Shown: positions 56,086-59,838 of the stretch, piece after piece
How positions within the stretch are numbered: the stretch's first letter is position 1
How the letters are laid out: each line of letters opens with the position of its first letter
Assembly (NCBI RefSeq): GCF_044324875.1
Contig: NZ_CP172185.1
DNA: 64,000 bases
Origin: Escherichia coli
GTDB lineage: Bacteria > Pseudomonadota > Gammaproteobacteria > Enterobacterales > Enterobacteriaceae
Reading direction: 5' to 3' (one strand)
The notes under the pieces: generated by a model
Told to the model about the DNA's origin: nothing
Databases searched by the model: none
Seen by the model: only the letters and a program-made list of their open reading frames with translations
Translations under genes and position numbers: made by a program

Positions 56086-59000
56086 ATGCGGATTATTTTT
56101 CTACGCAAGGAGTATTTATCTTTACTCCCGTCAATGATTGCATCTCTTTTCTCTGCTAACGGTGTCGCGGCGGTCATTGATTCATGTCAGGGATATGATA
56201 TCAAAGCGAGTTGTCACGCCAGCAGGCAAAGCCTTTCAGGCATTACGCAGGACTGGAGCATCGCCGATGGGCAATGGCTGGTTTTTTCGGATATGACCAA
56301 TAACGCCAGCGGTGGGGCCGTATTTTTGCAACAAGGAGCGGAGTTTTCTCTATCGCCAGAAAATGAAACTGGAATGACTCTGTTTTCCAATAATACTGTC
56401 TCAGGAGAATATAATAACGGCGGGGCAATATTTGCTAAAGAAAACTCAACGCTGAATCTTACTAATGTTATTTTTTCCGATAACGTTGCAGGTGGCTATG
56501 GTGGCGCAATCTATTCTTCTGGTACTAACGATACCGGTGTCGTCGATTTAAGTGTCACTAACGCCGTGTTTCGCAATAACATCGCTAATGACGGCAAAGG
56601 TGGTGGAATTTATACCATCAACAATGACGTCTATTTAAGTAAAGTTATTTTTGATAACAACCAGGCATATACATCAACAAGTTACAGTGATGGCGATGGG
56701 GGTGCAATCGATGTCACCGATAATAATAGCGATATCACGCATCCGTCAGGTTTCACAATAATAAATAACACCGCATTTACAAATAACACTGCCGAAGGTT
56801 ATGGTGGGGCAATTTATACCAATAGCGTGTCGGCTCCCTATCTTATTGATATTTCGATTGATGACAGCTACAGCCAGAACGGCGGCGTGTTAATCGATGA
56901 GAACAATAGCGCGGCAGGTTATGGGGATGGTCCTTCCACTGCGGCGGGCGGCTTTATGTATCTCGGCTTAAGTGAAGTTACCTTTGATATTGCCGACGGA
57001 AAAACGCTGGTTATCGGCAATACAGAGAATGACGGAGCTGTTGACTCTATTGCTGGTACCGGGGTAATCACCAAAACAGGTTCCGGCGATCTGGTACTTA
57101 ATGCAGATAACAATGACTTTACTGGTGAGATGCAGATAGAAAACGGTGAAGTTACCCTGGGCCGCAGCAACTCCCTGATGAATGTCGGCGATACGCATTG
57201 CCAGGACGATCCGCAAGACTGCTATGGTCTGACGATAGGGAGTATTGATCAGTATCAGAATCAGGCTGAGCTAAACGTTGGCTCGACCCAACAAACTTTT
57301 GTGCACGCATTGACGGGCTTTCAGAATGGCACTTTAAATATCGATGCTGGTGGCAACGTTACTGTTAATCAGGGCAGTTTTGCTGGCACCATCGAAGGTG
57401 CTGGTCAGCTCACCATTGCGCAAAACGGCAGCTACGTGCTGGCAGGGGCTCAGTCGATGGCGCTAACTGGCGATATAGTCGTTGATGATGGCGCGGTGCT
57501 TACGCTGGAAGGCGACGCGGCAGATCTTGCCGCTCTCCAGGACGATCCGCAGTCGATCGTGTTAAACGGCGGTGTGCTTGATCTCTCTGATTTCGCCACC
57601 TGGCAGAGCGGCACATCATACAACGATGGCCTTGCAGTCAGCGGCAGCGGCGGTACGGTTATCGGCAGTCAGGATGTGGTGGATCTCGCAGGGGGCGACA
57701 ATTTGCATATCGGCGGCGACGGGAAAGATGGCGTCTACGTGGTGATCGATGCGGGCGACGGGCTGGTTAGCCTGGCAAACAATAATAGTTACCTGGGCAC
57801 CACGCAAATCGCTTCCGGTACGCTGGTGGTGAGCGACAACTCGCAGCTTGGAGATACCCATTGCAACCGCCAGGTTATCTTTACCGATAATCAACAAGAA
57901 AGCGTGATGGAGATTACTGCCAATGTCGATACTCGCTCTACAACGACTGAGCATGGGCGTGATATTGAAATGCGCGCCGACGGTGAAGTGGCAGTTGATG
58001 CGGGGGTAGACACGCAGTGGGGCGGACTGATGGCTGACAGCAGCGGGCAGCATCAGGATGAGGGTAGCACATTGACTAAAACGGGGGCGGGTACGCTGGA
58101 ACTGACCGCCAGCGGTACGACGCAGTCGGCGGTACGTGTCGAAGAAGGCACCCTGAAAGGCGATGTTGCGGATATCTTCCCTTATGCTTCGTCGCTGTGG
58201 GTCGGTGACGGGGCAACATTCAAGACTGGCGCGGATCAGGATATTCAGTCAATTGATGCTACTTCCAGCGGCACTATCGACATCAGCGATGGTACGGTTT
58301 TGCGCCTGACCGGGCAGGATACTTCCGTCGCCCTTAATGCCTCACTGTTTAACGGCGATGGGACGCTGGTGAATGCCACCGATGGTGTGACGTTGACAGG
58401 TGAGCTTAATACCAACCTTGAAACTGACAGCCTGACTTATCTTTCCAACGTGACGGTTAATGGCAATCTGACCAATACGTCCGGTGCGGTTAGCCTGCAA
58501 AATGGCGTCGCTGGCGATACGCTGACGGTAAACGGTGATTATACCGGCGGCGGTACGCTACTGCTCGATAGCGAATTAAACGGCGATGACTCGGCAAGTG
58601 ACCAACTGGTGTTGAACGGTAATACTGCTGGCAACACGACCGTGGTAATTAATCCCATTACGGGTATTGGTGAGCCGACATCTACAGGCATTAAAGTGGT
58701 TGATTTCGCAGCTGATCCCACGCAGTTTCAAAACAATGCGCAGTTCAGTCTGGCAGGTAGTGGCTACGTCAATATGGGAGCGTATGACTACACGCTGGTG
58801 GAAGATAACAACGACTGGTATCTGCGATCGCAAGAAGTAACGCCGCCATCGCCACCTGATCCCGACCCGACTCCCGATCCTGATCCCACACCGGATCCCG
58901 ATCCAACACCCGACCCAGACCCTACGCCTGCTTACCAGCCGGTGCTGAATGCCAAAGTTGGTGGATATTTTAATAACCTGCGGGCGGCAAATCAGGCGTT

Positions 59001-59838
59001 TGTGATGGAGCGACACGATCACGCTGGTGGCAATGGTCAGACGCTGAATTTACGTGTTATCGGCGGAGATTATCATTACACAGCAGCGGGGCAACTGGCT
59101 CAGCATGAAGACACTTCTACGGTGCAGCTTAGCGGCGACTTGTTTAGCGGGCGCTGGGGCACGGATGGCGAGTGGATGCTTGGGGCGGTTGGTGGCTACA
59201 GTGATAACCAGGGCGACAGCCGCTCGAATATGACCGGAACTTGCGCCGATAACCAGAACCACGGTTATGCCGTTGGTCTGACCTCAAGCTGGTTTCAGCA
59301 CGGTAATCAGAAGCAGGGGGCCTGGCTGGATAGCTGGCTGCAATACGCGTGGTTTAACAATGATGTTTCCGAACATGAAGATGGCGCGGATCATTACCAC
59401 TCATCGGGGATTATCGCCTCGCTGGAAGCCGGGTATCAGTGGTTACCGGGGCGTGGTGTGGTGATTGAACCGCAGGCGCAGGTGATTTATCAGGGCGTGC
59501 AGCAGGATGATTTTACCGCCGCTAACCATGCGCGCGTGTCACAATCGCAGGGGGATGATATTCAGACGCGGCTGGGTTTACACAGCGAATGGCGTACCGC
59601 GGTTGGTGTCACACCAACATTAGATCTGAATTATTATCACGATCCCCATGCGACGGAAATTGAAGAAGATGGCAGCACTATCAGTGACGATGCGGTGAAG
59701 CAACGGGGTGAAATAAAAGTGGGAGTCACGGGCAATATCAGTCAGCGAGTGTCCCTGCGTGGTAACGTGGCGTGGCAGAAAGGGAGTGATGATTTTGCCC
59801 AGACGGCAGGGTTTTTGTCGATGACGGTGAAATGGTAA
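56086..59838 (+). CDS. yfaL: AIDA-I-type autotransporter adhesin YfaL
   Basis: 1250 aa; N-terminal signal sequence, Gly/Asn/Thr-rich beta-helix passenger, (PDPDPT)n linker and C-terminal beta-barrel ending in W. Confidence 0.9.
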   Translation: MRIIFLRKEYLSLLPSMIASLFSANGVAAVIDSCQGYDIKASCHASRQSLSGITQDWSIADGQWLVFSDMTNNASGGAVFLQQGAEFSLSPENETGMTLFSNNTVSGEYNNGGAIFAKENSTLNLTNVIFSDNVAGGYGGAIYSSGTNDTGVVDLSVTNAVFRNNIANDGKGGGIYTINNDVYLSKVIFDNNQAYTSTSYSDGDGGAIDVTDNNSDITHPSGFTIINNTAFTNNTAEGYGGAIYTNSVSAPYLIDISIDDSYSQNGGVLIDENNSAAGYGDGPSTAAGGFMYLGLSEVTFDIADGKTLVIGNTENDGAVDSIAGTGVITKTGSGDLVLNADNNDFTGEMQIENGEVTLGRSNSLMNVGDTHCQDDPQDCYGLTIGSIDQYQNQAELNVGSTQQTFVHALTGFQNGTLNIDAGGNVTVNQGSFAGTIEGAGQLTIAQNGSYVLAGAQSMALTGDIVVDDGAVLTLEGDAADLAALQDDPQSIVLNGGVLDLSDFATWQSGTSYNDGLAVSGSGGTVIGSQDVVDLAGGDNLHIGGDGKDGVYVVIDAGDGLVSLANNNSYLGTTQIASGTLVVSDNSQLGDTHCNRQVIFTDNQQESVMEITANVDTRSTTTEHGRDIEMRADGEVAVDAGVDTQWGGLMADSSGQHQDEGSTLTKTGAGTLELTASGTTQSAVRVEEGTLKGDVADIFPYASSLWVGDGATFKTGADQDIQSIDATSSGTIDISDGTVLRLTGQDTSVALNASLFNGDGTLVNATDGVTLTGELNTNLETDSLTYLSNVTVNGNLTNTSGAVSLQNGVAGDTLTVNGDYTGGGTLLLDSELNGDDSASDQLVLNGNTAGNTTVVINPITGIGEPTSTGIKVVDFAADPTQFQNNAQFSLAGSGYVNMGAYDYTLVEDNNDWYLRSQEVTPPSPPDPDPTPDPDPTPDPDPTPDPDPTPAYQPVLNAKVGGYFNNLRAANQAFVMERHDHAGGNGQTLNLRVIGGDYHYTAAGQLAQHEDTSTVQLSGDLFSGRWGTDGEWMLGAVGGYSDNQGDSRSNMTGTCADNQNHGYAVGLTSSWFQHGNQKQGAWLDSWLQYAWFNNDVSEHEDGADHYHSSGIIASLEAGYQWLPGRGVVIEPQAQVIYQGVQQDDFTAANHARVSQSQGDDIQTRLGLHSEWRTAVGVTPTLDLNYYHDPHATEIEEDGSTISDDAVKQRGEIKVGVTGNISQRVSLRGNVAWQKGSDDFAQTAGFLSMTVKW
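58855..58926 (+). repeat. Tandem repeat encoding a PDPDPT proline-rich linker within yfaL
   Basis: Repeated cc(t/c)ga(t/c)cc(n)ac(n) units encoding PDPDPTPDPDPTPDPDPTPDPDPTP. Confidence 0.8.

Follow-up and report, generated by a model that had tools for sequence, protein, structure and literature searches.

The YfaL autotransporter of Escherichia coli carries, between its passenger and its translocator domain, a proline-rich tract whose length varies in frame from strain to strain. We propose that this tract is a spacer that tethers the end of the passenger to the helix preceding the outer-membrane barrel, and that slippage or recombination between short repeats would have given it a stable, lineage-associated length polymorphism, without turning it into a switch; we put the probability of this reading at roughly 0.8. 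The tract was analysed in a stretch of E. coli DNA of 64,000 nucleotides (hereafter the window). The repeat is confirmed to be a known kind of element in a gene that is well annotated in E. coli K-12, and it is ordinary for proteins of this type.

The identification of the gene as yfaL, made in the original prediction, holds. The encoded protein matches the NCBIfam equivalog NF007285, "AIDA-I family autotransporter adhesin YfaL/EhaC", with 2786.6 bits for a cutoff of 1459, and the match covers positions 1-1250 of 1250. In addition, the gene order around the reading frame is nrdA-ypaB-yfaL-ubiG-gyrA; the flanking ORFs of 761, 256 and 875 residues in the window correspond to nrdA, ubiG and gyrA, which are annotated beside yfaL in NZ_CP077436.1. 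Pfam detects PATR and Chlam_PMP passenger repeats, AC_1 (PF18883) and the Autotransporter beta-domain (PF03797). Together with the AlphaFold model and the homology to 4MEE, this gives the architecture of an autotransporter, with a beta-helical passenger, an autochaperone, a helix and then a 12-stranded C-terminal barrel. Judged by eye, the N-terminus of YfaL, MRIIFLRKEYLSLLPSMIASLFSANGVAA, looks like a Sec signal peptide. An antisense ORF overlapping the repeat (58576..59022, 148 residues, GTG start) was set aside as a mechanical product of ORF listing, given that the full-length match of 2786 bits backs the reading frame of yfaL. The features of the region are collected in Table 1.

Table 1 Features of yfaL and of its proline-rich linker in the window
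Feature	Position	Strand	Basis or remark
yfaL/ehaC CDS, AIDA-I-type (type Va) autotransporter adhesin	56086..59838	+	1250 aa + stop; ORF list, translation, NCBIfam, Pfam
Autochaperone (junction) domain, Pfam AC_1, C-terminal end of the passenger	58465..58797	+	aa 794-904, E 2.2e-18
CTGATCCCAC, upstream direct-repeat copy (codons ADPT, inside the autochaperone domain)	58712..58721	+	sequence
Whole Pro-rich linker TPPSP(PDPDPT)4PAYQP	58840..58941	+	aa 919-952 (34 aa); predicted unstructured or extended coil
Four 18-nt units encoding PDPDPT	58855..58926	+	aa 924-947; same peptide in all four, DNA identity 67-83%
CTGATCCCAC, downstream copy, 168 nt from the first, within linker unit 2	58880..58889	+	sequence
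Predicted alpha-helix after the linker	58951..58995	+	aa 956-970; model residues 176-190
12-stranded outer-membrane beta-barrel (translocator), predicted	59041..59832	+	aa 986-1249; model residues 206-469; PF03797 aa 989-1228

The repeat had been described as separating the passenger from the translocator domain, and three lines of evidence bear this out: it lies between the AC_1 and beta-domain matches, in the gap of the alignment with 4MEE, and in a coil of low predicted confidence. In a phmmer search against PDB sequences, 4MEE (AIDA-I) aligns to YfaL residues 807-915 and 956-1243 (E 1.5e-34). The 40 YfaL residues left between these two stretches (916-955) match only about 11 residues in AIDA-I. 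The autochaperone region of YfaL also aligns to IcsA (3ML3), and the IcsA autochaperone structures 3ML3 and 5KE1 likewise stop at the WYL(T)SQ motif, whose YfaL counterpart, DWYLRS, occupies residues 910-915.

The AlphaFold2 model, computed for residues 781-1250 from an alignment of 19 sequences, has a mean pLDDT of 86.4 and a pTM of 0.82. In this model, the beta strands of the autochaperone reach approximately residue 919 (model residue 139), and residues 920-950 (model residues 140-170) form the sole low-confidence coil, with pLDDT values of 51-56 and no secondary structure, while the remainder stands at 80-97. Twelve long barrel strands follow, with pLDDT values mostly of 85-97. By homology with AIDA-I, the helix would plug the barrel pore; from autotransporter topology and the 4MEE homology, the linker would then sit at the outer face of the barrel, on the extracellular side. 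The linker, with a proline content of 44-46% in E. coli alleles and no predicted regular structure, most likely serves as a flexible but extended spacer. We picture a tract rich in proline, aspartate and threonine, either unstructured or polyproline-II-like, that would join the folded autochaperone (junction) end to the alpha-helix ahead of the 12-stranded barrel. Such a role would tolerate changes in length. Indeed, the natural range, 22-42 residues in E. coli and 10-100 residues in homologues, supports length tolerance, as far as sequence comparison can tell.

The coordinates originally given for the repeat (58855-58926) are exact. It had been called perfect, which is true of the peptide, repeated four times without change, and does not extend to the DNA. 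The codons are CCT GAT CCC GAC CCG ACT and CCC GAT CCT GAT CCC ACA for units 1 and 2, then CCG GAT CCC GAT CCA ACA and CCC GAC CCA GAC CCT ACG for units 3 and 4. When the four units are compared, 28 of the 36 third codon positions differ, against 0/36 at the first and 0/36 at the second position. Tandem Repeats Finder places an array of period 18 (3.4 copies, 76% matches, score 73) at 58853..58913, and the longest exact DNA repeat is 9 nt. The tract is the sole tandem peptide repeat in YfaL, and 17 of the 32 prolines of the protein fall within residues 916-952. A chance origin of the repeat is excluded, because 18 consecutive residues copy the preceding unit and because a tract is present at the same site in 5,419 of 5,426 genomes.

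The statement that short in-frame repeats of this kind are prone to slippage has to be divided accordingly between alleles. In the window allele the codons are scrambled and no exact repeat exceeds 9 nt; it is therefore a poor substrate, which should slip rarely. Other alleles do carry repeat-bounded events, described below, for which slippage would be a plausible mechanism. In the window allele, the absence of non-synonymous differences between units, set against 28 nearly saturating synonymous ones, hints at a constraint on the peptide itself, beyond a need for just any spacer. One could go further and suppose that the linker is more than a passive spacer: the (PDPDPT)n peptide would be functionally constrained, its length would be selected for adhesin reach or for evasion of antibodies or phages, and lineages would alternate between "locked" codon-scrambled alleles, like that of the window, and "evolvable" ones whose perfect 12- or 18-nt repeats readily change in number; we regard this proposal as improbable.

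We then turned to the copy number in other strains. A query of 221 nt around the repeat gave a single match per genome, in yfaL, for 5,419 of the 5,426 complete E. coli genomes. Allele length was obtained by comparing the query span with the record span in three evenly spaced samples of 60 rows, taken with different queries and hence from different rankings (Table 2). Overall, the window length accounts for about 66% of the genomes, the -18-nt class for about 21% and the +6-nt class for about 6%; the -24-, -12-, -36- and +24-nt classes are rarer. The seven length classes, from -36 to +24 nt, are all in frame and differ by multiples of 6 nt, that is, by whole Pro-X dipeptide blocks. About one third of complete genomes thus differ in length from the window, and the linker between DWYLRS and YQPVL spans 22 to 42 residues in E. 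coli. The suggestion that repeat length can vary between strains is borne out by this comparison, in which the length is clearly not invariant. As for lineages, the sampled K-12, B and O157:H7 genomes share one common length, the standard one, and O111:H8 provides an example of a short linker.

Table 2 Linker length relative to the window allele in three samples of complete E. coli genomes (60 rows each)
Length class	Sample 1	Sample 2	Sample 3
Same length as window	40	40	39
-18 nt	13	13	11
+6 nt	3	4	4
-24 nt	2	2	1
-12 nt	1	0	0
-36 nt	1	0	3
+24 nt	0	0	1
168-nt deletion	0	1	0
Partial match, length not readable	0	0	1

Length differences in a low-complexity region could be errors of sequencing or assembly. 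Some draft or long-read contigs are erroneous here, such as L022 and L023, which miss C residues in C runs, and short-read contigs stop inside the tract in many cases for Shigella sonnei and in some for E. coli. However, the variants of Table 2 were read in complete RefSeq genomes, never break the frame and recur in many independent genomes, at consistent frequencies in the three samples. Moreover, different strains can share one protein accession (two strains in the case of WP_021519829.1). The chance that the polymorphism is an artefact is thus practically negligible, and we take the length classes as real.

In the many draft assemblies of S. sonnei that break within the linker, the left-hand contig ends are staggered over the tract like a ladder, and the contig on the right invariably begins at CGGCCCCTACG. 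In the two S. sonnei contig ends that were inspected, the linker is native and free of IS sequence; IS insertion, coverage drop-out or heterogeneity may each account for the breaks. Among complete E. coli genomes, the best match to the S. sonnei query is 97.5% identical, and none reaches 99%.

Twenty-six E. coli alleles were read, the peptides being taken between DWYLRSQE and AYQPVL (Table 3). A minority of genomes carry the window's exactly perfect (PDPDPT)4, at most 142 of the 5,419 being at least 99% identical over the 221-nt query. Two Logan contigs (L022 and L023), candidates for novel frameshifted alleles, were discarded as error-laden, single C bases having been lost. The linker was also considered as the source of all length variation in yfaL. 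This was ruled out by Nissle and E10, both B2-type, whose yfaL measures 3759 nt with a linker of standard length; these alleles carry another 6-nt indel elsewhere in the gene.

Table 3 Linker peptides of E. coli yfaL alleles
Allele	Peptide
Window allele	PPSP(PDPDPT)4
K-12, B and most strains (common allele)	(PDPDPT)3 PDPEPT
O157:H7	Pro>Gln in unit 3
+6-nt alleles	end PDPAPDPT
-12-nt allele (L003)	one 18-nt block fewer than the +6-nt type
-24-nt allele	PDPDPT PDPT PDPEPT
B2-type alleles	begin NPTPPP
"Type II" family	PDPDPDPT(PDPDPT)n PDPI, n = 0, 1 or 2
Strain 1105	three PDPT units, +24 nt

In several alleles, the ends of the length changes coincide with direct DNA repeats. Type II alleles contain the perfect 18-nt unit CCTGACCCAACACCCGAT once (L006), twice (L004, L015, L016, L017 and L032) or three times (L014), and their exact DNA repeats measure 20-38 nt, the maximum of 38 nt being reached in the rarest allele, L014. 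The one-unit allele L006 differs from the two-unit alleles L016 and L032 by 0+1 SNPs in flanks of about 1,240 nt, and the three-unit allele L014 differs from the two-unit allele L015 by 1+1 SNPs in the flanks. Judged from such closely similar flanks, both comparisons appear to capture recent single-unit events. The single-unit allele (-36 nt) is found on three different flank haplotypes, which suggests either recurrence or recombination. Outside the type II family, strain 1105 (L029) has three copies of the 12-nt unit CCCGACCCAACC, which is present once in related alleles, and the deletions of L003 and L005 fall between CCTGATCC-type repeats. The largest event is seen in VTB97022v (L024). In K-12-type alleles, the direct repeat shared by the autochaperone domain and the linker is 12 nt long, CTGATCCCACGC; in VTB97022v exactly the 168 nt between the two CTGATCCCACGC copies are deleted, leaving one copy and removing 56 residues in frame. 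These end-points point to a mechanism in which the tract, whose DNA is built of short direct repeats (CCN-GAY-CCN..., 6, 12 or 18 nt per unit), would gain or lose whole P-X dipeptide blocks in frame, by replication slippage or by recombination between short repeats.

A tandem repeat within a surface-adhesin gene also recalls hypermutable simple-sequence loci that switch expression on and off, and a switch of YfaL by phase variation would fit with haplotypes that carry 0-2 SNPs in flanks of about 1.2 kb and differ by one unit. However, the units measure 6, 12 or 18 nt, multiples of three, and every natural variant, including the 168-nt deletion, is in frame, which argues against a phase-variation switch. 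Neither is there a long homogeneous DNA tract: exact repeats do not exceed 9 nt in the window allele or 38 nt in L014. Of the yfaL pseudogenes, L010 has its frameshift outside the tract (a gap at upstream alignment column 278), and L014 has an annotated internal stop with the linker reading frame intact. Finally, the single length of the sampled K-12, B and O157:H7 genomes does not suit a hypermutable locus. Overall, a contingency locus is very improbable.

The 1,143 aligned nt of flanking sequence from 18 alleles, with 191 segregating sites, are free of in-frame indels. The tract, at most 100 nt long, has many and is therefore a local indel hotspot. On the other hand, yfaL is mosaic, with upstream and downstream flanks that cluster differently, and the length classes mostly track flank haplotypes. 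Hence, the polymorphism is mostly stable and inherited, not hypervariable. Part of the pattern could correspond to a few old events spread by recombination instead of frequent slippage.

The association with lineages also invites an adaptive reading, in which selection on linker length would set the distance between the outer membrane and the YfaL beta-helix according to the O-antigen or capsule layer found in each lineage. The shortest and longest linkers are 20 residues apart; in an extended tract, with polyproline-II geometry, this could alter the reach by several nm, and the short linker of O111:H8 against the standard one of K-12, B and O157:H7 would agree with such tuning. Yet the same association is expected from descent alone, and nearly identical haplotypes differ in length. 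A tuning of reach thus seems quite improbable.

Selection might instead act on the tract as an exposed, immunodominant epitope, whose repeat number and residues would diversify under pressure from host antibodies or phages, a view that has been put forward for the GGXXP and PQP repeats of pertactin. Both copy number and residues do differ between strains (D>E, D>A, D>N, P>Q, P>S, T>I and S>L). Furthermore, yfaL has been reported among positively selected E. coli genes (PMC9110714), and the repeat regions of pertactin are polymorphic enough for typing (PMC12243275). However, in the accessible part of the former article the selection signal covers yfaL as a whole and is not localised to the linker. 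Two thirds of the genomes share one length class, and the four units of the window allele lack non-synonymous differences. We consider antigenic variation unlikely, and retain a length-tolerant spacer with inherited length classes.

With its seven in-frame classes, and about one third of genomes differing from the usual length, the allele series could find minor use as a typing marker. It also calls for caution when the C-terminus of YfaL is used as a surface-display anchor, and in the short-read assembly of yfaL. In addition, it shows on a small scale that one kind of peptide can be encoded either by codon-scrambled or by perfect DNA repeats.

Both elements of this picture have established precedents, proline-rich linkers at the same position in TibA and copy-number-polymorphic proline repeats of autotransporters in pertactin. 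In the literature that we searched, yfaL is nowhere mentioned together with "proline-rich". In TibA, a self-associating autotransporter of ETEC, a proline-rich domain is described that separates the junction region from the membrane-embedded domain (PMC3835316). The YfaL tract occupies the same architectural place, from AC_1/junction to helix and barrel, and shares the characters of such a linker: it lies between the autochaperone and the membrane domain, is rich in proline and has no predicted regular structure. TibA is nevertheless another protein with another linker sequence, and the YfaL linker is shorter (34 residues) and built of PDPDPT units.

The (PQP)n region of Bordetella pertactin is situated toward the C-terminal end of the passenger, and pertactin repeat regions are known antibody targets; to our knowledge, nothing comparable to this antibody targeting is known for YfaL. 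Isolates can be typed by the copy number of the pertactin (GGXXP)n and (PQP)n repeats, which varies among them (PMC12243275). Pertactin and YfaL have in common proline-containing tandem peptide repeats in an autotransporter, located in the passenger in the case of pertactin, with an isolate-dependent copy number, whereas the motif and the genus are different.

AIDA-I (4MEE) is the closest solved relative of the C-terminal region of YfaL, and both the autochaperone and the helix and barrel align. With about 11 residues in AIDA-I facing 40 in YfaL, the repeat linker is an insertion relative to AIDA-I. More distant homologues, about 30% identical (Citrobacter, Stenotrophomonas and metagenomic sequences), carry a Pro/Asp-rich or tandem-repeat segment of 10-100 residues at the same site. 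The protein search that retrieved them gave mostly fragments and few full-length cluster representatives, and was used for linker peptides, not for frequencies. As in YfaL, the low-complexity linker stands between WYL(R/T)S and Y/L-R/Q-P-x-x-G-A-Y, and several are tandem repeats, such as the (VTPVDPDDGGSD)n repeat of a Citrobacter homologue and the eight PDPxPT-like units of the metagenomic homologue P0082. Their repeat units are mostly unrelated to those of YfaL. Therefore, with such varied linkers at one and the same site, a variable low-complexity linker is general to AIDA-I-type autotransporters, of which the (PDPDPT)n tract of YfaL is one form.

A yfaL allele in strain VTB97022v (NZ_CP178670.1, hereafter L024) carries a 168-nt in-frame deletion whose ends coincide exactly with two copies of a 12-nt direct repeat, CTGATCCCACGC. 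Fifty-six residues are lost, among them the end of the autochaperone domain together with linker units 1 and 2. The resulting gene, 3585 nt in length, is still annotated as intact. At the other extreme, the longest linker among the E. coli seen is that of strain 1105 (NZ_CP023388.1; +24 nt relative to the window allele, yfaL of 3783 nt). This linker is built by a perfect 12-nt unit, CCCGACCCAACC, present three times (PDPT x3), and the allele is B2-type. In four other B2-type alleles (L012, L013, L027 and L028, from Nissle 1917, E10, 4/4 and CLSC36, respectively), yfaL measures 3759 nt despite a linker of standard length; there is therefore a second length difference, of 6 nt, elsewhere in the gene.

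Features located in and around the yfaL linker
Feature	Sequence	Positions	Strand
Repeat copy bounding the L024 deletion, first	window equivalent	58712-58721	
Repeat copy bounding the L024 deletion, second	window equivalent	58880-58889	
Antisense ORF, 148 aa, GTG start, opposite the yfaL linker region	window	58576-59022	minus
S. sonnei contig region at the linker break	L021	1780-1909	
S. sonnei contig region at the linker break	L018	1-120	
S. sonnei contig region at the linker break	L020	1-120	

Near the linker, yfaL displays unusually high polymorphism and a mosaic structure (window 58179-59600 compared with alleles L001-L017 from other genomes). Among 18 alleles, 191 sites segregate in 1,143 nt, and the linker flanks of the window differ from those of the other alleles by 29-87 SNPs. 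Because the alleles cluster differently in the upstream and downstream flanks, their sequences indicate recombination, with a breakpoint near the linker. The antisense ORF opposite this region is presumed to be spurious.

Dozens of partial YfaL proteins (P0012, P0026-P0117), most of them derived from Shigella sonnei draft assemblies and some from E. coli, break off within the Pro-rich linker, at every possible position. One C-terminal fragment of 306 aa, starting with APTPAYQPV, belongs to a cluster of 303 members, and in three assemblies the right-hand contig begins at the identical base, CGGCCCCTACG. No IS sequence was visible at the two S. sonnei contig ends read in the linker. The first linker unit of S. 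sonnei YfaL is PNPNPT.

A 1.4-kb yfaL query matched 5,431 places in 5,419 records, some genomes having two. Across the yfaL searches, a single match out of approximately 5,419 is in a record that carries a plasmid label instead of a chromosome label. Some complete genomes have yfaL annotated as a pseudogene, with a frameshift outside the repeat in NZ_CP032073.1, and an internal stop in NZ_AP042510.1, where the linker reading frame is intact.

A metagenomic protein of 445 aa (P0009), seen once, has YDYT fused directly to PAYQP and is devoid of the entire LVEDNNDWYLRSQEV...PEPT segment. Either the linker was lost in a larger natural deletion, or the sequence was misassembled. At the junction where YfaL has its linker, distant autotransporter homologues from Citrobacter and relatives (P0099, P0112, P0102, P0109) possess tandem repeats of their own, for example (VTPVDPDDGGSD)n, whose unit number ranges from 1 to ~7 depending on the protein, and (GNVDPVKPDDGNN)n. 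These junction repeats suggest that other genera have independent, copy-variable linkers.
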